DNA from: Escherichia coli
GTDB taxonomy: Bacteria > Pseudomonadota > Gammaproteobacteria > Enterobacterales > Enterobacteriaceae
Strand: one strand, 5' to 3'
DNA: 64,000 nt
Assembly: GCF_003334355.1 (NCBI RefSeq)
Contig: NZ_QOWP01000006.1
In this document: positions 8,676 through 50,873 of the stretch, piece by piece
How the letters are laid out: each line of letters starts with the position of its first letter
Position numbering within the stretch: the first letter of the stretch is position 1
Position numbers and translations under genes: made by a program
Notes under the pieces: model-generated
What the model was told of the DNA's origin: nothing
The model's database searches: none
Seen by the model: only the letters and a program-made list of their open reading frames with translations

Positions 8676-10244
8676 GTGGACTGGCTTCTTGATGTTTTTG
8701 CTACCTGGCTCTACGGCTTAAAAGTAATCGCGATAACGTTAGCGGTCATCATGTTCATCAGCGGGCTGGACGATTTTTTTATTGATGTCGTCTACTGGGT
8801 ACGCCGCATTAAACGCAAGTTGAGTGTTTATCGCCGCTACCCGCGAATGAGTTACCGCGAACTGTATAAACCAGATGAAAAACCGTTAGCGATTATGGTT
8901 CCGGCATGGAATGAAACGGGCGTCATCGGCAATATGGCCGAGCTGGCGGCGACCACGCTCGACTACGAAAACTATCATATCTTTGTTGGCACCTACCCCA
9001 ACGACCCCGATACTCAGCGTGATGTTGACGAAGTGTGCGCTCGCTTCCCGAATGTGCATAAGGTAGTCTGCGCGCGTCCTGGCCCCACCAGCAAAGCCGA
9101 CTGTCTGAACAACGTGCTGGACGCCATCACCCAATTTGAGCGTAGCGCCAATTTCGCTTTTGCTGGTTTTATTCTGCATGACGCCGAAGATGTGATTTCA
9201 CCGATGGAATTGCGTCTGTTCAACTATCTGGTCGAGCGTAAAGATCTGATTCAGATCCCGGTGTATCCGTTCGAACGCGAATGGACGCACTTCACCAGCA
9301 TGACTTACATTGATGAGTTTTCAGAGCTGCATGGCAAAGATGTTCCGGTGCGTGAAGCCCTCGCCGGACAAGTGCCCAGCGCAGGCGTCGGCACCTGTTT
9401 CAGCCGCCGCGCCGTGACCGCTCTGTTAGCTGACGGTGACGGTATTGCTTTCGACGTGCAGAGTCTGACTGAAGATTACGACATTGGTTTCCGCCTGAAA
9501 GAGAAAGGTATGACGGAAATTTTTGTCCGTTTTCCGGTGGTGGACGAAGCCAAAGAACGCGAGCAGCGTAAATTTTTACAGCACGCACGGACGTCAAACA
9601 TGATCTGCGTGCGCGAATATTTCCCCGATACCTTTTCGACTGCAGTTCGACAAAAATCTCGCTGGATCATCGGCATTGTTTTCCAGGGCTTTAAAACCCA
9701 CAAATGGACCTCCAGCCTGACGCTGAACTACTTTCTCTGGCGCGACCGCAAAGGGGCAATCAGTAACTTTGTCAGCTTCCTCGCGATGCTGGTGATGCTC
9801 CAGCTTTTGCTGTTGCTGGCGTATGAAAGTTTGTGGCCCGATGCCTGGCATTTCCTTTCTATTTTTAGCGGCAGCGCATGGTTAATGACCCTGCTGTGGC
9901 TAAACTTTGGCTTGATGGTTAACCGCATCGTGCAGCGGGTGATTTTCGTCACTGGCTACTACGGTCTGACGCAGGGGCTGCTATCTGTCCTGCGTCTTTT
10001 CTGGGGCAACCTGATTAACTTTATGGCCAACTGGCGCGCGCTAAAACAGGTACTTCAACACGGCGATCCACGTCGCGTCGCGTGGGATAAAACAACGCAT
10101 GACTTCCCCAGCGTCACTGGCGATACCCGCTCGTTGCGCCCGTTAGGTCAAATTCTGCTGGAAAATCAGGTCATCACTGAAGAACAACTCGATACAGCAC
10201 TGCGTAATCGCGTCGAAGGTCTACGCCTGGGCGGTTCAATGTGA
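8676..10244 (+). CDS. nfrB: NfrB phage N4 adsorption protein B, glycosyltransferase/membrane portion (GTG start), truncated by frameshift
   Basis: 522-aa ORF matching NfrB N-terminal region from memory; stops at 10242-10244 while the remainder continues in the +2 frame. Confidence 0.85.
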   Translation: MDWLLDVFATWLYGLKVIAITLAVIMFISGLDDFFIDVVYWVRRIKRKLSVYRRYPRMSYRELYKPDEKPLAIMVPAWNETGVIGNMAELAATTLDYENYHIFVGTYPNDPDTQRDVDEVCARFPNVHKVVCARPGPTSKADCLNNVLDAITQFERSANFAFAGFILHDAEDVISPMELRLFNYLVERKDLIQIPVYPFEREWTHFTSMTYIDEFSELHGKDVPVREALAGQVPSAGVGTCFSRRAVTALLADGDGIAFDVQSLTEDYDIGFRLKEKGMTEIFVRFPVVDEAKEREQRKFLQHARTSNMICVREYFPDTFSTAVRQKSRWIIGIVFQGFKTHKWTSSLTLNYFLWRDRKGAISNFVSFLAMLVMLQLLLLLAYESLWPDAWHFLSIFSGSAWLMTLLWLNFGLMVNRIVQRVIFVTGYYGLTQGLLSVLRLFWGNLINFMANWRALKQVLQHGDPRRVAWDKTTHDFPSVTGDTRSLRPLGQILLENQVITEEQLDTALRNRVEGLRLGGSM

Positions 10245-10912
10245 TGCAGGGGCTGATTAGCGCCGAGCAGCTGGCACAGGCGCTGGCAGAGCAAAACGGC
10301 GTGGCGTGGGAATCCATCGATGCCTGGCAGATCCCTTCCTCGCTGATTGCCGAAATGCCGGCCTCCGTGGCGCTGCATTATGCAGTACTGCCGCTGCGTC
10401 TGGAAAATGATGAGTTAATTGTCGGCAGTGAAGATGGTATTGACCCTGTTTCGCTGGCGGCCCTGACGCGTAAAGTCGGACGCAAAGTGCGTTACGTCAT
10501 TGTTCTGCGGGGACAAATTGTCACGGGGTTACGTCACTGGTATGCACGCCGACGCGGTCACGATCCGCGGGCAATGTTGTACAATGCGGTTCAGCATCAG
10601 TGGCTCACGGAACAGCAGACCGGTGAAATCTGGCGGCAATATGTGCCGCATCAGTTCCTGTTCGCCGAAATACTGACCACGCTCGGTCATATTAATCGTT
10701 CAGCAATTAACGTGTTGTTATTGCGCCATGAACGCAGTTCTCTGCCGCTCGGCAAGTTTTTGGTCACCGAAGGCGTTATCAGCCAGGAAACGTTGGATCG
10801 CGTCCTGACAATTCAACGCGAATTACAAGTTTCGATGCAATCACTATTACTCAAAGCAGGTTTAAACACAGAACAGGTTGCGCAACTGGAGTCCGAAAAT
10901 GAAGGAGAATAA
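10241..10912 (+). CDS. nfrB: NfrB C-terminal MshEN-like domain, separated from the N-terminal part by frameshift
   Basis: 223-aa ORF overlapping the upstream ORF stop by 4 nt (ATGTGATG); 522+1+222 equals the recalled 745-aa NfrB. Confidence 0.8.
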   Translation: MMQGLISAEQLAQALAEQNGVAWESIDAWQIPSSLIAEMPASVALHYAVLPLRLENDELIVGSEDGIDPVSLAALTRKVGRKVRYVIVLRGQIVTGLRHWYARRRGHDPRAMLYNAVQHQWLTEQQTGEIWRQYVPHQFLFAEILTTLGHINRSAINVLLLRHERSSLPLGKFLVTEGVISQETLDRVLTIQRELQVSMQSLLLKAGLNTEQVAQLESENEGE

Positions 10913-13871
10913 CCTTAATCGCGTCATCGGATGGTCTGGTTTACTGCTGACGTCTTTATTGAGTACCAGCGCACTCGCAGACAATATCGGCACCAGCGCA
11001 GAAGAGCTGGGGCTGAGCGATTATCGCCATTTTGTTATTTATCCCCGTCTCGATAAGGCGCTGAAGGCACAGAAAAATAACGACGAAGCAACCGCCATCC
11101 GCGAATTTGAATATATACACCAGCAGGTGCCGGATAATATTCCGCTGACTTTATACCTTGCGGAAGCCTATCGCCATTTTGGTCATGATGACCGGGCGCG
11201 GCTGTTGCTGGAGGATCAACTGAAACGTCACCCAGGAGATGCCCGACTTGAGCGCAGTCTGGCGGCTATTCCAGTTGAAGTGAAAAGCGTTACGACTGTT
11301 GAAGAACTGCTTGCCCAGCAAAAAGCGTGCGATGCTGCGCCGACCCTGCGTTGTCGCAGTGAAGTCGGGCAGAATGCCCTGCGGCTGGCACAGTTACCTG
11401 TCGCCAGAGCGCAACTGAACGATGCGACGTTTGCTGCATCGCCGGAAGGAAAAACGCTGCGAACCGATCTGCTGCAACGGGCAATCTACCTGAAACAATG
11501 GTCCCAGGCAGATACGCTATACAATGAAGCACGCCAGCAGAACACATTAAGCGCGGCAGAACGCCGTCAGTGGTTTGACGTGCTTCTTGCCGGGCAGCTG
11601 GACGATCGGATCCTGGCACTGCAATCACAGGGGATCTTCACCGATCCTCAGTCATATATTACTTACGCGACCGCGCTGGCTTATCGTGGCGAAAAAGCAC
11701 GCCTCCAGCATTATCTCATTGAAAATAAGCCGCTGTTTACCACGGACGCACAAGAGAAAAGTTGGCTCTATCTGTTATCTAAATACAGCGCCAACCCCGT
11801 TCAGGCATTGGCGAATTATACGGTGCAGTTTGCCGATAACCGCCAGTATGTTGTTGGCGCGACGCTACCGGTGCTGTTAAAAGAAGGTCAGTACGACGCA
11901 GCGCAAAAACTGCTCGCCACCCTCCCCGCCAATGAAATGCTTGAGGAGCGTTATGCTGTCAGCGTGGCGACCCGTAACAAGGCTGAATCTCTGCGTCTGG
12001 CACGATTGCTGTATCAGCAAGAACCGGCAAATCTTACCCGCCTGGATCAACTGACCTGGCAACTGATGCAGAACGAGCAGTCACGCGAAGCTGCCGATTT
12101 ATTGCTGCAACGCTATCCTTTCCAGGGCGATGCGCGTGTCAGCCAGACTTTAATGGCGCGACTGGCGTCTCTGCTGGAAAGTCATCCTTACCTGGCAACT
12201 CCAGCGAAGGTGGCGATTTTATCAAAACCCTTGCCGCTGGCGGCGCAACGTCAGTGGCAAAGCCAGTTGCCGGGTATTGCAGATAATTGCCCGGCAATAG
12301 TTCGCTTGCTGGGCGATATGTCGCCTTCCTACGATGCCGCCGCCTGGAACCGTCTGGCAAAGTGTTATCGGGACACGCTACCCGGTGTGGCCTTGTATGC
12401 ATGGCTTCAGGCCGAACAACGACAACCGAACGCCTGGCAACATCGTGCGGTATCCTATCAGGCGTATCAGGTTGAGGACTACGCCACCGCACTGGCGGCC
12501 TGGCAGAAAATCAGTCTTCACGACATGAGCAATGAGGATCTGCTTGCTGCTGCCAATACCGCCCAGGCGGCAGGAAATGGTGCAGCTCGCGATCGCTGGC
12601 TACAACAGGCAGAACAACGTGGACTGGGAAACAATGCCCTCTACTGGTGGCTGCATGCGCAACGTTACATTCCTGGTCAGCCGGAACTCGCACTGAGCGA
12701 TCTCACGCGCTCAATCAATATTGCGCCTTCTGCCAACGCTTACGTTGCGCGGGCGACAATTTATCGCCAACGTCATAATGTCCCGGCGGCGGTGAGTGAT
12801 TTGCGCGCCGCGCTGGAACTGGAACCGAATAATAGCAACATCCAGGCAGCGCTTGGTTACGCCTTGTGGGATAGCGGTGATATCGCACAGTCGCGGGAAA
12901 TGCTCGAACAGGCGCATAAAGGGCTACCGGACGATCCGGCACTGATCCGACAACTGGCCTATGTGAACCAGCGTCTGGATGACATGCCTGCGACGCAGCA
13001 CTACGCCCGCCTGGTGATTGATGACATTGATAATCAGGCGCTGATAAACCCACTCACCCCAGAGCAAAATCAGCAACGCTTCAATTTCCGCCGTCTGCAT
13101 GAGGAGGTCGGTCGCCGCTGGACGTTCAGTTTCGATTCTTCTATCGGCTTGCGTTCCGGGGCAATGAGCACCGCTAACAATAATGTCGGCGGCGCAGCGC
13201 CAGGGAAAAGCTATCGTAGCTACGGGCAACTGGAAGCCGAGTACCGCATCGGACGCAATATGCTGCTGGAAGGCGACCTGCTCTCAGTTTATAGCCGCGT
13301 CTTTGCCGATACCGGAGAAAACGGGGTGATGATGCCGGTGAAAAATCCGATGTCCGGCACCGGTCTACGCTGGAAGCCGCTGCGCGATCAGATCTTTTTC
13401 CTCGCCGTCGAACAGCAGTTGCCGCTGAACGGGCAAAATGGCGCATCCGATACCATGCTGCGCGCCAGCGCCTCATTCTTTAATGGCGGCAAATACAGCG
13501 ACGAATGGCACCCGAACGGTTCAGGCTGGTTTGCCCAAAACCTGTACCTCGATGCGGCGCAATATATCCGCCAGGATATTCAGGCGTGGACGGCAGATTA
13601 TCGCGTCAGCTGGCATCAGAAGGTAGCTAACGGACAGACTATTGAGCCTTACGCTCACGTTCAGGACAACGGCTATCGTGATAAAGGCACTCAGGGCGCG
13701 CAGCTTGGCGGTGTCGGGGTCCGCTGGAATATCTGGACCGGCGAGACGCACTACGACGCCTGGCCGCACAAAGTCAGTCTCGGCGTCGAGTATCAACATA
13801 CCTTTAAGGCGATTAATCAACGTAACGGAGAGCGCAACAACGCGTTTCTCACCATTGGAGTGCACTGGTAA
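10899..13871 (+). CDS. nfrA: NfrA outer-membrane phage N4 receptor (TPR-containing)
   Basis: Long ORF, MKENNLNRVIGWSGLL start, signal peptide, overlaps nfrB end as in K-12. Confidence 0.9.
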   Translation: MKENNLNRVIGWSGLLLTSLLSTSALADNIGTSAEELGLSDYRHFVIYPRLDKALKAQKNNDEATAIREFEYIHQQVPDNIPLTLYLAEAYRHFGHDDRARLLLEDQLKRHPGDARLERSLAAIPVEVKSVTTVEELLAQQKACDAAPTLRCRSEVGQNALRLAQLPVARAQLNDATFAASPEGKTLRTDLLQRAIYLKQWSQADTLYNEARQQNTLSAAERRQWFDVLLAGQLDDRILALQSQGIFTDPQSYITYATALAYRGEKARLQHYLIENKPLFTTDAQEKSWLYLLSKYSANPVQALANYTVQFADNRQYVVGATLPVLLKEGQYDAAQKLLATLPANEMLEERYAVSVATRNKAESLRLARLLYQQEPANLTRLDQLTWQLMQNEQSREAADLLLQRYPFQGDARVSQTLMARLASLLESHPYLATPAKVAILSKPLPLAAQRQWQSQLPGIADNCPAIVRLLGDMSPSYDAAAWNRLAKCYRDTLPGVALYAWLQAEQRQPNAWQHRAVSYQAYQVEDYATALAAWQKISLHDMSNEDLLAAANTAQAAGNGAARDRWLQQAEQRGLGNNALYWWLHAQRYIPGQPELALSDLTRSINIAPSANAYVARATIYRQRHNVPAAVSDLRAALELEPNNSNIQAALGYALWDSGDIAQSREMLEQAHKGLPDDPALIRQLAYVNQRLDDMPATQHYARLVIDDIDNQALINPLTPEQNQQRFNFRRLHEEVGRRWTFSFDSSIGLRSGAMSTANNNVGGAAPGKSYRSYGQLEAEYRIGRNMLLEGDLLSVYSRVFADTGENGVMMPVKNPMSGTGLRWKPLRDQIFFLAVEQQLPLNGQNGASDTMLRASASFFNGGKYSDEWHPNGSGWFAQNLYLDAAQYIRQDIQAWTADYRVSWHQKVANGQTIEPYAHVQDNGYRDKGTQGAQLGGVGVRWNIWTGETHYDAWPHKVSLGVEYQHTFKAINQRNGERNNAFLTIGVHW

Positions 13872-14762
13872 ATGCGTAAGTTCATTTTCGTATTGCTGAC
13901 ACTGCTTTTGGTCAGCCCTTTTTCCTTTGCGATGAAAGGTATTATCTGGCAACCACAAAACCGTGATAGTCAGGTTACCGATACCCAGTGGCAGGGGCTG
14001 ATGAGTCAGTTACGTTTGCAAGGCTTCGATACCCTGGTTTTGCAATGGACCCGTTACGGCGATGCATTCACCCAGCCAGAACAGCGCGCGTTATTGTTTA
14101 AGCGGGCCGCAGCTGCGCAACAGGCTGGCCTGAAGCTGATTGTCGGGCTGAACGCCGATCCGGAATTTTTTATGCACCAGAAACAGTCGTCCGCAGCGCT
14201 GGAAAGCTATCTTAATCGCCTGCTGGCTGCCGATCTCCAGCAAGCCAGATTATGGAGCGCCGCGCCTGGCGTAACGCCGGATGGCTGGTACATCAGCGCG
14301 GAAATTGACGACCTGAACTGGCGCAGCGAAGCCGCCCGTCAGCCTTTGCTAACATGGTTAAACAACGAGCAGCGGCTGATTAGCGATGTTTCAGCAAAAC
14401 CGGTTTATATCAGTAGTTTTTTCGCCGGAAACATGTCGCCCGATGGCTATCGCCAACTGCTGGAACACGTTAAAGCAACCGGCGTTAATGTCTGGGTACA
14501 GGATGGCAGCGGCGTGGATAAACTTACCGCTGAACAGCGTGAACGTTATCTACAGGCCAGCGCCGATTGCCAAAGCTCCGCCCCAGCAAGCGGCATTGTT
14601 TATGAACTGTTTGTCGCCGGCAAAGGCAAAACCTTTACAGCGAAACCGAAACCGGACGCAGAAATTGCCTCGCTGTTAGCGAAACGTTCCTCTTGCGGTA
14701 AAGACACTCTCTATTTCTCTCTGCGCTATTTGCCCGTCGCGCACGGCATTCTCGAGTATTAA
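13872..14762 (+). CDS. ybcH: YbcH family exported protein
   Basis: 296-aa ORF with signal peptide immediately after nfrA; synteny. Confidence 0.75.
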   Translation: MRKFIFVLLTLLLVSPFSFAMKGIIWQPQNRDSQVTDTQWQGLMSQLRLQGFDTLVLQWTRYGDAFTQPEQRALLFKRAAAAQQAGLKLIVGLNADPEFFMHQKQSSAALESYLNRLLAADLQQARLWSAAPGVTPDGWYISAEIDDLNWRSEAARQPLLTWLNNEQRLISDVSAKPVYISSFFAGNMSPDGYRQLLEHVKATGVNVWVQDGSGVDKLTAEQRERYLQASADCQSSAPASGIVYELFVAGKGKTFTAKPKPDAEIASLLAKRSSCGKDTLYFSLRYLPVAHGILEY

Positions 14763-14944
14763 ATCTCCTCCAGGTAAGTCGGGTACGACCTGGCTTACCT
14801 CTTTCGCTCTCGTCAGAATTCCATCAAGATTAATTGCTAAAAAGCGTGCTAAAGAAAGAAGATCGTTATCGGCGAACGGGCCGATCACTCATGCAGGAAG
14901 CATAGATCCTTTGAGCGGAGTTTCTGATATCTGAGGAGTGCGAA

Positions 14945-15706
14945 ATGCAATTGAGCAGCAGTAAACCTTGCGTGGTGATCCTGACCGAAAAAGAGGTAGA
15001 GGTAAGCGTCAATAACCATGCTACGTTTACCCTTCCGAAAAACTACCTGGCCGCCTTCGCGTGCAACAATAACGTCATTGAACTCTCAACGTTAAATCAC
15101 GTATTAATCACCCACATCAACCGTAACATCATCAACGATTATCTGTTGTTTTTAAATAAGAACTTAACCTGTGTAAAGCCCTGGTCGCGGCTGGCTACCC
15201 CGGTTATCGCTTGTCATAGCCGTACACCGGAAGTGTTCCGGCTAGCCGCCAACCACAGCAAGCAGCAACCCAGCAAACCCTGCGAAGCGGAGTTGACGCG
15301 CGCATTGCTTTTTACCGTATTGTCTAACTTTCTTGAGCAATCGCGGTTTATTGCCCTACTGATGTATATCTTACGCAGCAGCGTCCGCGACAGCGTCTGC
15401 CGCATTATTCAAAGCGATATTCAGCACTACTGGAATCTGCGAATTGTCGCCAGTTCGCTATGTTTAAGCCCCAGCCTGCTCAAAAAGAAATTAAAAAACG
15501 AAAATACCAGCTATAGCCAGATTGTCACAGAGTGTCGTATGCGTTACGCCGTACAGATGTTATTGATGGATAACAAAAATATCACTCAGGTGGCGCAATT
15601 ATGTGGCTATAGCAGCACGTCGTACTTTATCTCTGTTTTTAAGGCGTTTTACGGCCTGACACCGTTGAATTATCTCGCCAAACAGCGACAAAAAGTGATG
15701 TGGTGA
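14945..15706 (+). CDS. envY: EnvY AraC-family transcriptional regulator
   Basis: 253-aa ORF with C-terminal AraC-type HTH (..YSSTSYFISVFKAFYGLTPLNYL..); synteny with ybcH. Confidence 0.75.
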   Translation: MQLSSSKPCVVILTEKEVEVSVNNHATFTLPKNYLAAFACNNNVIELSTLNHVLITHINRNIINDYLLFLNKNLTCVKPWSRLATPVIACHSRTPEVFRLAANHSKQQPSKPCEAELTRALLFTVLSNFLEQSRFIALLMYILRSSVRDSVCRIIQSDIQHYWNLRIVASSLCLSPSLLKKKLKNENTSYSQIVTECRMRYAVQMLLMDNKNITQVAQLCGYSSTSYFISVFKAFYGLTPLNYLAKQRQKVMW

Positions 15707-15751
15707 AGGGCAAAGCGGAAACGGATAAGACGGGCATAAATGAAGAAGAAA

Positions 15752-15828
15752 TGGCGCGCCCTGCAGGATTCGAACCTGCGGCCCACGACTTAGAAGGTCG
15801 TTGCTCTATCCAACTGAGCTAAGGGCGC
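15752..15828 (-). tRNA. argU: tRNA-Arg (anticodon UCU)
   Basis: Minus strand reads GCGCCCTTAGCTCAGTTGGATAGAGCAACGACCTTCTAAGTCGTGGGCCGCAGGTTCGAATCCTGCAGGGCGCGCCA, matching argU from memory. Confidence 0.9.
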
Positions 15829-16070
15829 GTTGATACCGCAATGCGGTGTAATCGCGTGAATTATACGGTCAACCCTTGCTGAGTCAATGGCTTTTGATCT
15901 GGTTGCTGAACAAGTGAACGACCGCGTCTGATTTTCTGATTTATTTCGCTATAGTGGCAAACAAACGCACACCGCTGCGCGTCTGAATCAAGAAAACCCG
16001 TATTTTCATGTATCAAAGTACAATTTACCGCCCTAACGGAAAATTGTCCGCTCCTATGAGACTGGTAACT

Positions 16071-16703
16071 ATGAAACCAACGTCGGTGATCATTATGGAT
16101 ACTCATCCTATCATCAGAATGTCTATTGAAGTTCTGTTGCAAAAAAACAGTGAATTGCAGATTGTCCTGAAAACGGATGATTACCGCATAACCATCGATT
16201 ATCTCCGAACCCGTCCTGTTGATTTAATCATTATGGATATAGACTTGCCCGGAACAGACGGTTTTACCTTCCTGAAAAGGATCAAACAAATCCAGAGCAC
16301 AGTGAAAGTGTTATTTTTATCATCGAAATCAGAATGCTTTTATGCTGGCAGAGCGATACAAGCTGGTGCTAACGGTTTTGTCAGTAAATGCAATGATCAG
16401 AATGATATTTTTCATGCCGTTCAGATGATCCTCTCCGGATACACGTTTTTTCCTAGCGAAACGCTTAACTATATAAAAAGCAATAAATGTAGTACGAATA
16501 GTTCAACGATCACTGTGCTATCTAATCGTGAAGTGACCATATTACGTTATCTGGTTAGCGGATTATCTAATAAAGAAATTGCCGATAAGTTATTACTTAG
16601 CAATAAAACAGTTAGTGCGCATAAATCTAATATTTATGGCAAGCTAGGTTTGCATTCAATTGTAGAGCTTATCGACTACGCCAAATTATACGAATTAATA
16701 TAA
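16071..16703 (+). CDS. fimZ: FimZ response-regulator-like transcription factor
   Basis: MKPTSVIIMDTHPIIRMSIEVLL.. receiver domain plus LuxR-type HTH; 210 aa from this start. Confidence 0.85.
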   Translation: MKPTSVIIMDTHPIIRMSIEVLLQKNSELQIVLKTDDYRITIDYLRTRPVDLIIMDIDLPGTDGFTFLKRIKQIQSTVKVLFLSSKSECFYAGRAIQAGANGFVSKCNDQNDIFHAVQMILSGYTFFPSETLNYIKSNKCSTNSSTITVLSNREVTILRYLVSGLSNKEIADKLLLSNKTVSAHKSNIYGKLGLHSIVELIDYAKLYELI

Positions 16704-16705
16704 TA

Positions 16706-17221
16706 TTAATTATAATTGATCATAAATATCGCATCCGCTTTCGCCACACCTGGCCGAACACCGCTGGCTAACGCTCGATAATTGGCAAAAAAGTTTAGTG
16801 TGACATTGCCATTTGCATCTACTTCCTCAGTCGGGCTCGCCTCCCCCAGTGCGAGCCGGGAGCGATCGCTATTACGTAATTCGATGGCGACGGTTTGTGC
16901 CATTGCGGGATCATCCAGAGCCAGCAGGTTGGTATCGGATGCCGGCGTTCCCGTAAATAAAATCGCAACTGAACCCGGAGGACATCCCTCCAGCCGCAGG
17001 CTAAAAGGGACGAGTGCCGTGGTATCGCCAGCGTTCAGTAATTGTGTCGTAGGCCATCTGCCTAAATCTACCGTCTTATCAATATCCGCTGTGTTTACGG
17101 TACAGGAGAAATCAACAACGTTACCGTGCAAATTGATATTAATCGTTCCTAAAGGGTCAGCTGCCCATCCACTGGAACTCCACAGTAACCCGCAGAAACA
17201 GCTAAAGAGTACTCTTCTCAT
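16706..17221 (-). CDS. sfmF: SfmF fimbrial-like adhesin subunit
   Basis: Signal peptide MRRVLFSCFCGLLWSSSGWA; start chosen inside the longer track ORF; sfm operon synteny. Confidence 0.75.
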   Translation of the reverse strand: MRRVLFSCFCGLLWSSSGWAADPLGTININLHGNVVDFSCTVNTADIDKTVDLGRWPTTQLLNAGDTTALVPFSLRLEGCPPGSVAILFTGTPASDTNLLALDDPAMAQTVAIELRNSDRSRLALGEASPTEEVDANGNVTLNFFANYRALASGVRPGVAKADAIFMINYN

Positions 17222-17231
17222 TCTCCGTACC

Positions 17232-18239
17232 TCATTGATAATCGACGCGTAAATACCCCAGCGCGCTAAACGGCCCCTCGGTCGGTTTTTGACCGGTAAT
17301 ACTGATAGGCCAGGCGCGAAGTGTGACATTGGCTGCCGCAGCTGCATCCAGACGGAAAGGAATAACGCTATTGAGATCGTTAGGCGTAATCGGCGTATCG
17401 TTCTGATCGGCGACAATAAAACCTAAATCCTGATTGTCCGACACCATCGCCTGACCAGAAACGGCACTGGCTTCCAGACGCATTGTTAAATAAGCCTGCG
17501 CAGCAACATTCGTACATTTGACCGCAATGCTCTTGGTTTGCGGCATGACACCAGCAGGTCGATTACCCGGCCCTGCCGCACTAAATAACGATGCGCCGAT
17601 ATCACCAAAATCAAATTCAACAATCTGCCCGGCATTTAATTCGCAGTTTTGCGGTACTTCAACCCGGCCACCAAAACTAATGGTATAAACAGGTGTAACC
17701 AACGGATCGTAAGGCGTTGATGTCACATACACGGTAAACATCACCTGTCTGGGGATCTCCACCATGTTAATAAAGGGACGAATAACCTTTAAACGAAATA
17801 TTAAACGAGAATCCATCACCCCGAATAGAAGGTTTTGCGAAACGTTAGGATCTGTTCCCATCCGAATATAATTTTGCGGGGGGAACTGAATATCCATAAC
17901 ACTATCAACCAGACTCATCGCACCTAATAGATAATCATGTAATTGCATATATTTATAATTATCGATAGTTTCCTGAACAATAAAGTTGGTGACATAACTA
18001 CGGTATGTATAATTCACCAGCGTGCCGGGTGGACAAATTGCTGACACACCTACCCAGCCGGATTTTTCCGGTAAAACAACAATCTGCCCTGGCTGGTTAT
18101 TGGTGCTATTAAAGACATTTGAGAGATCATAGTGTTCATCTTCTGCTACGCCAGTACTATTTGCACAAACAGTAGCCCAGGATATGTTTGTTAACCACAA
18201 ACATGCCATCGCCAATAATAATCTGCAGATTATCTTCAT
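17232..18239 (-). CDS. sfmH: SfmH fimbrial adhesin-like protein
   Basis: 335-aa ORF with signal peptide, in sfm operon position. Confidence 0.75.
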   Translation of the reverse strand: MKIICRLLLAMACLWLTNISWATVCANSTGVAEDEHYDLSNVFNSTNNQPGQIVVLPEKSGWVGVSAICPPGTLVNYTYRSYVTNFIVQETIDNYKYMQLHDYLLGAMSLVDSVMDIQFPPQNYIRMGTDPNVSQNLLFGVMDSRLIFRLKVIRPFINMVEIPRQVMFTVYVTSTPYDPLVTPVYTISFGGRVEVPQNCELNAGQIVEFDFGDIGASLFSAAGPGNRPAGVMPQTKSIAVKCTNVAAQAYLTMRLEASAVSGQAMVSDNQDLGFIVADQNDTPITPNDLNSVIPFRLDAAAAANVTLRAWPISITGQKPTEGPFSALGYLRVDYQ

Positions 18240-18251
18240 TGATAATTTCCT

Positions 18252-20861
18252 TTATGAGCCAGGATGTGTGCAAACTGCCGAAATAACTGTGACGGCTTGC
18301 TGTAAGCTTTGCTTCGGCAATACATAGTGCGCAATGCAGCGTGAGTTCGCGCCGTCTCCCCACTGAACCAGTAATTCACCAGACAATGGCGCACCACTTA
18401 AATAAACTTGCCCGTCATCACCCACCATACTGGTTATTCCGGTACTGTTTTCCCGTACCAGTGATCCAAACGGCACCGGTTTTCTGCCCTGGGTAACGGT
18501 AATGAGCGCCCGCACGCCTATGCGGGTATCAAAATTGGCACGAACCAACGCGCCTTGCGTCGGCACAACGCTGCTAATATTTTTTTCAACATCGATGGAA
18601 TTCCCCATCGTATTGGTATCAAGCGCGATACGGTTATACCGATAAACCGTGGCATACGGCATCACCGCATAGCCGCGCCAGTCGGTTAAAATGCCAGTTT
18701 GATTTTCAATGCGTACACCGCCTGCGCCAGGCGCTTTAATCAAAACATTGGTATCCCCTAAAGGCTGGCTCAGCGTTATGCCATTTTCATGCCCGACCAC
18801 ACCGCCAGACAGCTGCCAGTTAACGTCATGTTGATCGCGGTCGTAGTTATACCCGACCCCCAGCGTACCGTAAGCGGCCTGCCAGTTTGCCGTGGCGCTG
18901 CCCGTATACCCATTATTCGAGGTATCACCCTGGCTTACGTGATAACTCAGGTTGTGGCCTTCCAGTAAGGTCCCACCTACACCTGCCAGCCAGCTATTTT
19001 GCCCGTTGCTGTTACGGTTGGCGTTAAAGGAGGCATAAGCGCGGTCGAGCGCATTTTCCCGGGTGTAGCGACGTTTGGTCAGAACATTGAAAGGCACTGA
19101 AACATTAAGTCCGACAATACGTTCGTTATCGGGGATCCCTACAGATTCATTCCACGAAAATGAGAGTGAATAACTGATGCCAACCCAGCTGCTGGTATAC
19201 CCCACCTGATACCAGGTATCTGAATCCGAAGTATTCCAGTATTTTTGATGGGTACCAGAGATATAAAGCGAGCCAAAGTCATTAAGTGATTGTGAAATAT
19301 TTAACTGCAAACGGTCTTTACGGCTAAAGCGTAAATTGTGGTAATTCACGATTATCGGTTCATCGCGATGCTCACCGTCGTAATCGTAATCATATTCGTA
19401 CCCCTCCATTCGACGATACGCAACATCATCAAGGGTATAAAAACCTTGTGTCGAATAGCGGTAACCCATTAACTGAAAATTGGTGCCGAAGGTGTTCATC
19501 GATTTCGCATAGAGGAAGCGAATGGAATCCCCCTCATGACGACTGTCGTCGGCTAACTGACTGCGCGCATGGGTCACATCCAGCGACACTGTGCCCCAGT
19601 TCCCGAGGTTGCGCCCCAGCCCTAATAAAAAGGCGGTGTAATTGGCAGATAATTGCGTCCCGCCGTAGGCAGTAAATTCCTGTGGTAAACCGCCGAGTGC
19701 CGTACCCTGAAAAAAGAAAGGCGATGATTGCTGACTATTACCGCTACGAAAATCGCCCGCCGTCAGGTCAAATTTGAAACGCCCTTCGCGTTGTAAAATT
19801 GGCACTGTTGAATACGGAATTGTGTAATTCTGCTGATTACCATCGCGCTCGTCGATGGTGACGTCCAGATCGCCATTTGAAGATGTCGGGTGCAAATCTG
19901 TAATTTCAAAAGCGCCGGGGGAAACATAGCTTTGATAGATAATAAAACCATTTTGCCGAATCGTTAGCTGGGCCGCCGTACGGGCAATCCCACGTACTGT
20001 TGGGGCAAACCCTTGCTGGCTATCAGGATACATATTATCGGAAGAGTAAAGCCGTATACCACGAAATCCAACACCATCGAAAATATCACTTCCTGTATTG
20101 CCGTCTCCCATTACCAGTTCACTTTTCAGCGGAATAATGGCGCGCTGTACCCAGGTGCCAATATTATTCCACTGTTCTGAATGATATCCATTTCCGCGAA
20201 AATAGTTCCAGGAATCATTGTTGCGTAAACGCCACGGGCCAATATTAATCCCGCTGAGCTCACTAAAAAAATAGCTATCGTTACCATTACCTCTGTTACC
20301 GGTGAAATTATAATTCAGGAGTAAAGCAGGAATACCTTCATCCCACTCTTCAGGCGGAATGTAACCGTGAGCGCTACTCAACAACGCTATCTGAGGAATA
20401 GTGATGTTCAGGCGCATCGCTGCAAAATCAAAGTTAATTGTGGCATCAGGTACAGCTTTCAGTAAATTGATGCATTTATTGTTTTGCTGCTGGGCTAACT
20501 CGGGAAATGCACTGCTATTAAGGCTAATTCGTTCAAGGAGTACCTGGTTAAAACAGGGCATTAACCCACCTGATTTATCACCTGTATTTTCTGTTGTCGA
20601 TTCAAATACGATATCCTGTGAACCAATGAACTCATCATTACGCCAGAGATCTACCCGATACACGCCCGCAGGTTGATGATTACCTCTCTCAAAGCGCGAT
20701 AAATCAGCAACGGATGTGCCATTCTCTAATAAAAATGCCGGGTTGAAATAACTTTCCGCATAGCTTAAAAAGGAGGGTAAAATGGCAAGAGATGAATAAC
20801 AAATTCCGGCCAGACACCAGGTATACCTCTGCGGAATATCCGTAGTAGTGGGTATTTTCAT
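18252..20861 (-). CDS. sfmD: SfmD fimbrial outer-membrane usher
   Basis: 869-aa ORF, usher-sized, between chaperone and adhesin genes. Confidence 0.85.
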
Positions 20862-20891
20862 AATTAGCTCTGATATTGTCAGATGATTCGG

Positions 20892-21584
20892 TTAGTTTAA
20901 GTTCACTTCTCTGACCGGGGTTACTGAACCATAATCATTAACGGTCTGAAATTTCAGCTTTCCCTGCACTCCTGAGGGTAAGGGAATTTGTGAATTAACT
21001 CTGGGTGCAGCCATAGCATTCCCCAACTTTTGGTTGCCCACTTGTAAGTTAACCAGAGTGACATAAAAAGGTGAGGGATTATGAACATTGATATAGTTAC
21101 CGGATCGCGAAAACTTGAGTGTGTCCGGTGCTTCTGCGGGTAATTCTTGTAATTGAATTAGACGGAGAAATAATTTCATGCGCGATAAAATCGCCAGTTG
21201 CAAAACATTCCTGCCGTTCAATGCATTTTTATCTACCGAAGGGATCGTCTTAACATTCATCCAGAACAGAGACTCACGATCTGCTGCCAGCGGTGGACCG
21301 GTGTAAATAATACGCAAGGTATTTTCGCTTTTGGGTTCACTAACAAACAGTGGCGGTGTAATGATGAATGACTTTTCTTTTACACCGCTGCTGTTTTCAA
21401 TCCACGAATTGACCAGAAAGCGCTCATTGGTATGGCTATTTCTAATCCATACCGCAGTCTGTTTAGCATCAGCGGGATAAATAATACGCGTGGCACCTAA
21501 TGCGATCCCTCCGGCAGCATGGGCGCTGGCCGAAATGATTAAATAAAATATAATGAGCATCAATAACTTTATTTTAGTCATCAT
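20892..21584 (-). CDS. sfmC: SfmC periplasmic fimbrial chaperone
   Basis: 230-aa ORF with signal peptide and PapD-like features. Confidence 0.85.
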
Positions 21585-21803
21585 AGTTAATACGCCTTGT
21601 GTATTCCTGACGGCAAAAATAAGAAATATAAAGAAATGATTGCTTTGGTTTCTTACAACACATCATTCCCTTTTCATTTAATAAAGCGGCATGATACAAA
21701 GTGAACATGATTTCGATTTACATTGCCACCATACCGCTTCAGACAACCGGTACATTACTTTGTTATAAGACGTGATATATAATTCAAAACAACGTGGTTT
21801 TGA

Positions 21804-22346
21804 TTATTCGTATCTCATAATAAAAGTCGCGTCAGCATTTGCTTGCCCTGCTGATGCACTTGTACCGGTGCCTTTATAACGTGCAGAAAAATGAAGAACG
21901 TTGGTCCCGGGGATCAAGTTCTGGTTGGTTGAGAAGCTATTCCCATCAGGTTTGAGAATTGCGGATGTATTATCAAGTATTTCAATACCGACACCCGTTG
22001 CTGTTGTTGTATTGGTACTGGATGCAATGGCCAATAAATTATCATTGATTGCATCAGCCTGACCAGAAAATGCAACGGCAGCATTAGCGGCAACAACAGG
22101 ATCGCAGTCGTTCAACTGAATGGTGAATGGAATTAATGCAGAGGTATTACCAACAGCATTGAAAATATCGGTACGATATTGACCGAGTGTGACAACCTGG
22201 TCTGCCGAGTCAGTATTCACTGAACAGGCAGCATTCACCAGTTCGCCTTCAAAGTGAATTGTACCGCCATCTACAACGGCAGCATAACTACCCGTAGCGG
22301 CGAATAGTGCGGCAGCCAGCGCAGACGAAATAAATCTTAATTTCAT
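21804..22346 (-). CDS. sfmA: SfmA major fimbrial subunit
   Basis: [22 protein letters not shown] signal peptide, 180 aa; start chosen inside longer ORF. Confidence 0.8.
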
Positions 22347-22826
22347 ATATATTCCTTCAATCTCATTTATCGACTCCACATCCGTATATAACCGATTACT
22401 TTATTTAAGACACTGATAGTAGTAAAATTCCTTTTTATCCTCTAAGAATGTCTTAATTGAAAATATGCACTCTATTCTAAAAAATAGAGAGCCCCGTTAG
22501 ATGAATACTTTCGCGCAAAATATATTCAACACAAATATAGACCTGAAGCGGTAAATTACCAGGCTGAAAATTCTTTTTATATTGTCAGGTATTTCTTAAA
22601 TTATCTTAATCCTTAAACAAGGAAATAAATCAGTTCCAGATTTACAACGCCATCATGGACGAAAAATGAAGCTTTCAATCTCAGCGACCTCAGCGACGGT
22701 GCGCCTCACCTTCGCAAGAGGTCGCTTCACGCGATAAATCTGAAACGAAACCTGACAGCGCGCCCCGCTTCTGACAAAATAGGCGCATCCCCTTCGACCT
22801 ACGTAACAGATGGAATCCTCTCTCTG

Positions 22827-23693
22827 ATGGCAGCAAAGATTATTGACGGTAAAACGATTGCGCAGCAGGTGCGCTCTGAAGTTGCTCAAAAAGTTCAGGC
22901 GCGTATTGCAGCCGGACTGCGGGCACCAGGACTGGCCGTTGTGCTGGTGGGTAGTAACCCTGCATCGCAAATTTATGTCGCAAGCAAACGCAAGGCTTGT
23001 GAAGAAGTCGGGTTCGTCTCCCGCTCTTATGACCTCCCGGAAACCACCAGCGAAGCGGAGCTGTTGGAGCTTATCGATGCGCTGAATGCCGACAACACCA
23101 TCGATGGCATTCTGGTTCAACTGCCGTTACCGGCGGGTATTGATAACGTCAAAGTGCTGGAACGTATTCATCCGGACAAAGACGTGGACGGTTTCCATCC
23201 TTATAACGTCGGTCGTCTGTGCCAGCGCGCGCCGCGTCTGCGTCCCTGCACCCCGCGCGGTATCGTCACGCTGCTTGAGCGTTACAACATTGATACCTTC
23301 GGCCTCAACGCCGTGGTGATTGGCGCATCGAATATCGTCGGTCGTCCAATGAGCATGGAACTGTTGCTCGCAGGTTGCACCACTACCGTGACTCACCGTT
23401 TCACTAAAAATCTGCGTCACCACGTAGAAAATGCCGATCTGTTGATCGTTGCCGTCGGCAAGCCGGGCTTTATTCCTGGTGACTGGATCAAAGAAGGCGC
23501 AATTGTGATTGATGTCGGCATCAACCGTCTGGAAAATGGCAAAGTTGTGGGCGACGTCGTGTTTGAAGACGCGGCTAAACGCGCCTCATACATTACGCCT
23601 GTTCCGGGCGGCGTTGGCCCGATGACGGTTGCCACGCTGATTGAAAACACGCTTCAGGCGTGCGTTGAATATCATGATCCACAGGGTGAGTAA
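22827..23693 (+). CDS. folD: bifunctional methylenetetrahydrofolate dehydrogenase/cyclohydrolase
   Basis: 288-aa [18 protein letters not shown]..; conserved FolD. Confidence 0.9.
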
Positions 23694-23694
23694 C

Positions 23695-23907
23695 ATGGCG
23701 ACATTTTCTTTAGGTAAACATCCGCACGTTGAGCTGTGCGATTTGCTGAAACTGGAAGGCTGGAGCGAAAGCGGCGCGCAGGCGAAAATCGCGATTTCCG
23801 AAGGCCAGGTGAAAGTCGACGGTGCGGTTGAAACGCGCAAACGCTGCAAAATCGTCGCCGGTCAGACAGTGAGTTTTGCAGGTCACAGCGTACAGGTTGT
23901 TGCCTGA
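23695..23907 (+). CDS. ybcJ: S4-like RNA-binding protein YbcJ
   Basis: 70 aa from MATFSLGKHP..; immediately after folD. Confidence 0.8.
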   Translation: MATFSLGKHPHVELCDLLKLEGWSESGAQAKIAISEGQVKVDGAVETRKRCKIVAGQTVSFAGHSVQVVA

Positions 23908-24014
23908 TCCCTTTCCCGGCCTGTATCAACAGGCCGGTTCTCTTTTCAGACTTTTGCCCTCTACGCCCCGTTCATCCATGCTGATAGCATCGACATTTTG
24001 CCGAAGCGACCATC

Positions 24015-24536
24015 ATGCCAACCGTTATTACGCACGCCGCCGTTCCCCTATGCATTGGTTTAGGGTTGGGTTCGAAAGTCATCCCTCCGCGTCTGTTATT
24101 TGCCGGAATCATCCTGGCGATGCTGCCCGACGCCGACGTATTGTCGTTTAAATTTGGCGTTGCTTACGGCAATGTTTTTGGTCATCGCGGGTTTACCCAT
24201 TCGCTGGTGTTTGCGTTTGTTGTCCCGCTGTTATGTGTGTTTATTGGACGCCGATGGTTCAGGGCTGGGCTGATTCGCTGCTGGCTGTTTTTAACCGTCT
24301 CGTTGCTATCGCACAGCTTGCTGGATTCGGTAACCACTGGCGGTAAAGGCGTTGGCTGGCTGTGGCCGTGGTCAGATGAACGCTTTTTCGCTCCCTGGCA
24401 GGTGATAAAAGTCGCGCCGTTTGCATTGTCTCGTTACACCACGCCGTACGGGCATCAGGTGATTATTTCTGAATTGATGTGGGTGTGGTTGCCGGGGATG
24501 CTACTGATGGGAATGTTGTGGTGGCGCAGACGATAA
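24015..24536 (+). CDS. ybcI: inner-membrane metal-dependent hydrolase family protein YbcI
   Basis: 173-aa hydrophobic ORF, synteny. Confidence 0.75.
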   Translation: MPTVITHAAVPLCIGLGLGSKVIPPRLLFAGIILAMLPDADVLSFKFGVAYGNVFGHRGFTHSLVFAFVVPLLCVFIGRRWFRAGLIRCWLFLTVSLLSHSLLDSVTTGGKGVGWLWPWSDERFFAPWQVIKVAPFALSRYTTPYGHQVIISELMWVWLPGMLLMGMLWWRRR

Positions 24537-24571
24537 CCGGATGCGAAAACTCGCATCCGGCAATAGCGCAA

Positions 24572-25957
24572 TTACTTACGACGCCAGGTGGTCCCTTGCG
24601 GGCCATCTTCCAGCACGATCCCCATCTCGTTAAGACGATCACGCGCCGCATCCGCCGCCGCCCAGTCTTTCGCTTTACGGGCATCCAGACGCTGTTGAAT
24701 TAACGCTTCAATCTCAGCCACTTCGCTGTCGTCTGCCTGCGCGCCGCTTTGCAGGAACGCTTCCGGTTCTTGCTCCAGCAGGCCCAATACAGCGGAAAGT
24801 TTACGCAGGTGAGATGCCATTGCATTCGCCGCTGCCATATCTTCTGCTTTCAGACGGTTTACTTCACGCGCCATATCAAACAGTACGGAATAGGCTTCCG
24901 GGGTGTTGAAATCGTCGTCCATCGCTTCAATAAAGCGCGCTTCAAACGCTTCGCCACCGGCAGGCGCAACGGTTTTATCTGTGCCGCGCAGCGCAGTGTA
25001 GAGACGCTCCAGCGCCGCACGCGCCTGCTTCAGGTTCTCTTCGCTGTAGTTCAACTGGCTGCGATAGTGGCCCGACATCAGGAAGTAACGCACGGTTTCC
25101 GCGTCGTAGTATTTCAGCACATCGCGCACGGTAAAGAAGTTACCCAGCGATTTGGACATCTTCTCGCGGTCAACCATCACCATTCCGGAGTGCATCCAGT
25201 AGTTCACATACTGACCATCATGGGCACAGGTGGACTGCGCGATTTCGTTCTCGTGGTGCGGGAACATCAGGTCTGAACCGCCGCCGTGGATATCAAAGTG
25301 GTTACCCAGCTGCTTGCAGTTCATGGCCGAACATTCAATGTGCCAGCCAGGACGACCCGCGCCCCACGGAGACGGCCAGCTCGGTTCGCCCTCTTTCGAC
25401 ATCTTCCACAGAACGAAGTCCATCGGGTTGCGTTTGTCATCAACCACGTCAACGCGCGCGCCAGCCTGCAGCTGGTCGAGATCCTGACGCGACAGCACGC
25501 CATAAGTTGGATCGGTCGGGACGTCAAACATCACGTCGCCGTTGTCCGCCACATAAGCGTGACCTTTGGCGATCAGTTGTTCAGTGAGTTCAATAATTTC
25601 TGCGATATGGTGCGTCGCGCGCGGCTCCATATCCGGGCGCAGAATGTTCAAAGCATCAAAATCTTTGTGCATTTCGGCGATCATGCGATCCACCAGCGCC
25701 ACAAAGCTTTCGCCATTTTCATTGGCGCGTTTGATGATTTTGTCGTCGATATCGGTAATGTTGCGCACATACTTCAGTTTATAGCCGAGGAAACGCAGAT
25801 AGCGCGCAACCACGTCAAAAGCAACAAAGGTACGCCCGTGACCGATATGACAGAGATCGTAAACGGTGATTCCACACACGTACATGCCGACTTCCCCGGC
25901 GTGAATAGGCTTAAATTCCTCTTTTTGGCGTGTCAGAGTATTGAAGATTTTTAGCAT
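24572..25957 (-). CDS. cysS: cysteine--tRNA ligase
   Basis: 461 aa, HIGH (CHIGHGR) and KMSKS motifs present. Confidence 0.95.
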
Positions 25958-50789: not shown

Positions 50790-50873
50790 ATGAAAACTTT
50801 TCTCGATAAAGTTCTCATCGTTCTTAAGGCGCTAATCGCGCTGCTGGAACTGATCCGTCAGTTTATTGAATAA
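50790..50873 (+). CDS. 27-aa hydrophobic single-helix peptide, candidate type I toxin (TisB/DinQ-like)
   Basis: MKTFLDKVLIVLKALIALLELIRQFIE; SD GGGAG 6 nt upstream; in-frame upstream ATG at 50718 would give 51 aa; core LIALLELIR recalled as shared with DinQ. Confidence 0.6.
   Translation: MKTFLDKVLIVLKALIALLELIRQFIE

Follow-up and report, generated by a model that had tools for sequence, protein, structure and literature searches.

The 45-bp interval between envY and argU in the Escherichia coli strain represented by contig NZ_QOWP01000006.1 is almost certainly chromosomal DNA flanking a phage attachment site (attB) that lies unoccupied at the 3' end of argU. In the stretch of 64,000 nucleotides analysed here, which we call the window, the site has the features of an attB: the tRNA gene is intact, its core equals the direct repeats found in lysogens, this core is present in a single copy with collinear flanks, and temperate phages carry it. 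The empty argU site is a common, already described presence/absence polymorphism and involves no new mechanism.

The argU locus and its counterpart in K-12

The window contains one tRNA gene, which was assigned by ARAGORN as tRNA-Arg with anticodon TCT (argU, tRNA-Arg(UCU); 15752..15828, minus strand). The call is backed by Rfam RF00005 with 72.1 bits, and the gene is intact, being identical to K-12 argU at 77 of 77 nt. The tRNA gene is preceded on its 5' side by a promoter-like site (15860..15887, minus strand; TTGACT, 16 nt, TATAAT), which matched 11 of 12 consensus positions in a simple scan and is a candidate by consensus match only. On the other side lies envY, an open reading frame for an AraC-family regulator (14945..15706, plus strand) that is also annotated in the collinear strain PSS-12 and that in K-12 lies next to the attR end of DLP12. 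Because envY ends at 15706 and argU at 15752, the intervening gap (15707..15751) is exactly 45 bp, with the 3' end of the tRNA facing envY; the earlier note had given this distance and this position, and the coordinates from ARAGORN, Rfam and the list of open reading frames agree with it exactly. Two genes frame the locus further out, both on the plus strand and both annotated at the same coordinates in PSS-12: ybcH (13872..14762), a conserved flank gene of the chromosome that encodes a DUF4434 protein and was seen as an open reading frame, and, on the argU 5' side, fimZ (16071..16703), which is followed by the sfm fimbrial operon. No element could be recognised in the spacer itself. Taken as the 3' trailer of argU, it folds no more stably than its shuffles (z = +1.33), a scan found no terminator-like site within its 45 bp, and no Rfam family besides the tRNA was found in 13-19 kb of the window; the idea of a hidden element inside the spacer was rejected on these grounds.

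When the K-12 locus was compared with the window by blastn, two collinear blocks were obtained and no others, at 12354-15799 and 15750-24690, which overlap only in the core. At the junction, MG1655 588500..586054 aligns to window 13353..15799 and MG1655 564801..562500 to window 15750..18051, with an overlap confined to 15750-15799. The flanks are 98.9-99.3% identical, with 99.3% DNA identity across 15750-18051, and the K-12 DNA from between argU and envY has no blastn match anywhere in the 64-kb window. In MG1655, an exact 47-bp direct repeat, CTTCTAAGTCGTGGGCCGCAGGTTCGAATCCTGCAGGGCGCGCCATT, is found at 564755-564801, where it takes in the final 45 nt of argU and 2 nt more, and at 586057-586103, where it adjoins envY. 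From one copy to the other the distance is 21,302 bp, exactly the extent of the RefSeq feature 'cryptic prophage DLP12' (564755..586056), within which lie intD, emrE, nmpC, the lysis genes, appY and ompT. In the window, the 47-bp core (attB core, 15750..15796, minus strand), again made up of the last 45 nt of argU and 2 nt past its 3' end, occurs once, compared with twice in the K-12 locus. In a three-way alignment, the window corresponds to the K-12 flank on the envY side (attR side), one core, and the K-12 flank on the argU side (attL side). A single core copy joined to both K-12 flanks indicates a scar-free attB. K-12, too, has the 45-bp spacer next to envY, differing by one substitution, which makes it ordinary chromosomal flank.

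Searches at the protein level gave the same picture. No homologues of IntD, OmpT, EmrE, YbcK, RusA or NohD were detected in the 64 kb by tblastn, and AppY matched only its paralogue envY (44% over 96 aa). Where a DLP12 carrier has intD, other DLP12 genes, ompT and appY between argU and envY, the window has just 45 bp. Further partial copies of argU are absent from the window, and K-12 has only the two expected; tandem or decayed elements at argU were rejected for lack of additional partial copies in the window. The absence of a DLP12-type prophage from argU, which the earlier note had proposed, is thus supported by two abutting blast blocks, a single core copy and the lack of DLP12 proteins, and its statement that ompT and appY are missing holds across the whole 64-kb window, the locus included, by both blastn and tblastn. 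The alignment to K-12 that it had named as a check gave a window equal to MG1655 minus exactly the 21,302 bp of DLP12. Its description of the K-12 interval, about 21 kb of DLP12 plus appY and ompT, was correct as to the size and presence of the segment, but the word 'plus' was not, because the DLP12 feature of 21,302 bp already contains both genes and the total is about 21.3 kb. Within K-12 MG1655 itself the interval varies: in the variant NZ_CP010439.1, 18.6 kb lie between the argU repeats versus 21.3 kb in NC_000913.3, with nmpC, essD, rrrD, rzpD and borD absent beside IS5 and nohD carrying an additional IS1. These differences are laboratory-stock variation.

The K-12 comparison would be invalid if envY and ybcH in the window were paralogues from another locus, a reading for which one could point to the large AraC family that includes envY and to the 44% identity at which AppY matches it. 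The earlier note had likewise made its claim depend on the orthology of these two genes, and the orthology holds. EnvY is identical to its K-12 counterpart at 251 of 253 aa and YbcH at 291 of 296 aa, and the gene order nfrB-nfrA-ybcH-envY-argU-fimZ-sfmFHDCA-folD is that of K-12 except for the envY-argU interval. Collinearity is unbroken on each side, from nfrA to envY and from argU via the sfm operon to cysS. On this identity and collinearity, the paralogue reading was rejected and retains virtually no probability.

The preferred reading, an unoccupied attB, accounts for both arrangements. In the K-12 lineage, a P22/lambdoid-type tyrosine integrase (IntD) recombined the argU site with a phage attP that had the identical 47-bp core. 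Integration regenerated an intact argU at one end; at the other, adjoining envY, a partial argU copy of 47 bp remained, with the 21.3 kb of the now-defective DLP12, including emrE, nmpC, appY and ompT, between the repeats. The strain studied here has a single core copy at the site and lacks phage DNA there, so that envY lies 45 bp from the tRNA gene.

Other genomes, ompT status and neighbouring regions

The contiguous envY-argU-fimZ junction was found in 2,505 of the 5,426 complete E. coli genomes (46%), and the whole stretch from nfrB to fimZ is contiguous in 2,344 of the 5,426. As approximately 46% of complete genomes share the empty state, it is ordinary. The complete genome of PSS-12 (NZ_AP027697.1) aligns collinearly and without gaps to all 64,000 bases, with 32 mismatches, and ATCC 8739 is 99.3-99.8% identical to the window. 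DLP12 at argU has long been described (Lindsey, Mullin & Walker 1989, as cited in PMC6379469). The authors of PMC6379469 placed DLP12 at the 3' end of argU with a 47-bp attR, compared strains with and without the prophage, and found it at the argU locus in 74% of 638 strains, and they argued for horizontal spread; the empty junction stands at 46% of 5,426 in the larger 2026 collection.

These genomes also bear on the assembly of the contig. Repeats that flank an element can in principle cause misjoins, so that a real prophage might have been collapsed across the 47-bp direct repeats, and nothing more specific speaks for such an artefact. We consider it exceedingly improbable, given that a read is much longer than the 47-bp repeat, that the junction is identical in 2,505 complete genomes, that PSS-12 matches the window from end to end, and that chromosomal ompT is absent from all of the 60 nearest complete genomes (see below).

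Besides the empty site, two occupancy states were seen, namely the K-12 type with DLP12 and a reduced remnant in the B2-type strain GU2018_CL13. The order in GU2018_CL13 is ybcH, an attR-like partial copy of argU (46 bp that match the 3' end of argU at 91% identity), ompT, a methyltransferase gene, a tail-fibre fragment, an integrase fragment and argU. At this locus (8440-12002), DLP12 is reduced to approximately 3.4 kb with an intact ompT retained, envY is deleted save for its last ~39 bp, and the whole fimZ-sfm cluster is absent, so that argU abuts folD.

The ompT status of the strain was approached through its relatives. As a proxy, we used chimeric queries that combine the junction with ompT and counted how many distinct places matched in each record. 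The counts apply to each replicon separately and therefore bear on chromosomal ompT in the relatives, not on plasmid-borne copies. Plasmid places with ompT are rare, with 25-29 in the whole collection. Overall, 3,095 of the 5,426 genomes have ompT. In a spread sample of 27 records with the contiguous junction, 23 were without chromosomal ompT and four, of the O157:H7 type, had ompT elsewhere. The 60 records nearest to the window by the 6.6-kb nfrB-to-fimZ haplotype, PSS-12 and ATCC 8739 among them, each gave a single matching place and hence have no chromosomal ompT. Judged from these 60 nearest complete genomes, the strain is very probably OmpT-negative. OmpT affects protein stability and the cleavage of antimicrobial peptides.

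Several other observations were made in the window and its relatives. Window 1-8405 is an island of vgrG, DcrB-related and Rhs genes with two small open reading frames, located between cusS and nfrB, and it includes an ISAs1 transposase gene at 7269-8405; strain 2017.15.02CC and GU2018_CL13 have no Rhs island between cusS and nfrB/nfrA. The Rhs gene is broken into two open frames, 1271-3391 and 3319-5724, and its PSS-12 counterpart carries a frameshift annotation. Window 8039-8171 points to IS copies having exchanged sequence and not to point mutation. In nfrB (8676-10912), a 1-bp deletion at approximately 10242 relative to an intact B2 copy (CAATGCTGATG to CAATG-TGATG) splits the gene into frames at 8667-10244 and 10208-10912, a lesion common to PSS-12. 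The NfrB/NfrA system is probably inactive as read from these frames, which would affect exopolysaccharide secretion and the adsorption of phage N4. The window also has an intact 230-aa open reading frame for the sfm chaperone (sfmC, annotated as fimC; 20892-21584). The PSS-12 annotation gives this gene an internal stop, and positions 21200 and 21455, two of the 32 SNPs, lie inside it. In strain 2017.15.02CC, internal stops are instead found in an sfmH-like adhesin gene and in nfrA. The cryptic fimbrial/nfr region thus appears to decay independently in close relatives. Finally, a small dinQ-type toxin gene is annotated in PSS-12 at the position of window ~50790-50873, in the mnmH-ybbP intergenic region, where no Rhs gene is annotated in PSS-12; K-12 presumably carries its rhsD element at this position.

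History of the empty site

We infer that this lineage never carried an element at argU, rather than that it lost one cleanly. In the type strain of E. albertii, the order is ybcH-envY-argU-fimZ with one core copy and neither integrase nor prophage. The prophage-free locus in this sister species makes the empty state the simpler ancestral condition, and the comparison favours a prophage-free argU locus as ancestral. In this E. albertii locus (NBRC 107761), the envY-argU gap consists of ~700 bp of AT-rich DNA (5470-6176) and not of the 45-bp spacer; it contains an orphan 160-aa open reading frame (5597-6079) without an NCBIfam match, and no second copy of the argU core. Homologues of envY in Citrobacter, Kosakonia and Salmonella arizonae/diarizonae (57-63% identity) were uninformative as outgroup evidence: no tRNA-Arg was found within 6 kb of them, and since they are not beside argU, they say nothing about the site.

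It is somewhat unlikely, yet clearly within consideration, that the site is secondarily empty, an ancestor having carried a DLP12-type, ompT-bearing element at argU that was later lost cleanly through excision by integrase and excisionase, homologous recombination between the 47-bp repeats, or replacement of the region from a donor with an empty site. DLP12 or its remnants occur in lineages as distant as K-12 and the B2-type strain, bounded by the same argU repeat, and a remnant that retains ompT in the latter indicates that the element is old and widespread, so that this lineage could have lost it. The flanks of the window are 98.9-99.3% identical to those of K-12 and yet the occupancy differs, indicating that gain or loss occurs between fairly close relatives. 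The prevalence and the horizontal spread reported in PMC6379469 fit the same scenario. On the other side, a clean excision is scar-free and can leave no positive trace in the sequence, the E. albertii synteny is prophage-free, and xisD is annotated as a pseudogene in K-12, from which site-specific excision of the decayed element would be expected to be inefficient.

The site as a phage target and comparison with known systems

Free temperate phages match window 15750-15799 over 47-54 bp with 94-100% identity. They comprise the Escherichia phages PhiR29_1, PhiR68_2, PhiR26_1, ev243, 2G7b, Kati and Turner and the Salmonella phage SEN22. The position and length of these matches are consistent with their being the attP sites of the phages. 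The argU site of this strain is predicted to be still competent for integration, and argU is listed among the prophage integration sites of STEC O145:H28 (PMC7067040). Because the core covers the 3' part of the tRNA gene, integration regenerates the tRNA.

Integration also swaps the argU 3' trailer, which begins with TTTCTTCTTCATTT at the empty site and with TTACAATTCAATCAG in lysogens. As the trailer differs with occupancy, strains with an empty site could process or terminate the argU tRNA differently from DLP12 carriers. The argU tRNA is a rare tRNA that decodes AGA and AGG. We regard it as very unlikely that occupancy would act through argU processing or termination on the argU level and thereby on how well AGA/AGG-rich genes are translated, the neighbouring fimbrial regulators among them.

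For strain description, it is useful that the strain belongs to the large fraction of E. coli that is DLP12-free and very probably OmpT-negative, with an argU site free for temperate phages that integrate there. The significance is small, and the observation is not a discovery.

The site has counterparts among known systems. Temperate phages in general use tRNA genes as attachment sites (Campbell 2003, as cited in PMC6379469), and the window shares with these sites a core that is the 3' part of the tRNA and is carried by free phages, with nothing distinctive here. The remnant in GU2018_CL13 is likewise bound to argU, with its attR-like partial argU copy beside the former position of envY; the remnant genes, the envY deletion and the absence of fimZ-sfm are not seen in the window. 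The DLP12 attB of K-12 has an identical tRNA gene, the same 47-bp core and the same flanks, envY-ybcH-nfrA and fimZ-sfm. In contrast to K-12, the window is unoccupied, with one core copy, without intD, emrE, nmpC, appY or ompT, and with one substitution in the spacer. The O157:H7-type genomes with an empty site keep ompT elsewhere on the chromosome, whereas the nearest relatives of the window are without chromosomal ompT. At the locus itself, the empty argU sites of O157:H7, ATCC 8739 and PSS-12 have the same envY-argU-fimZ junction as the window.
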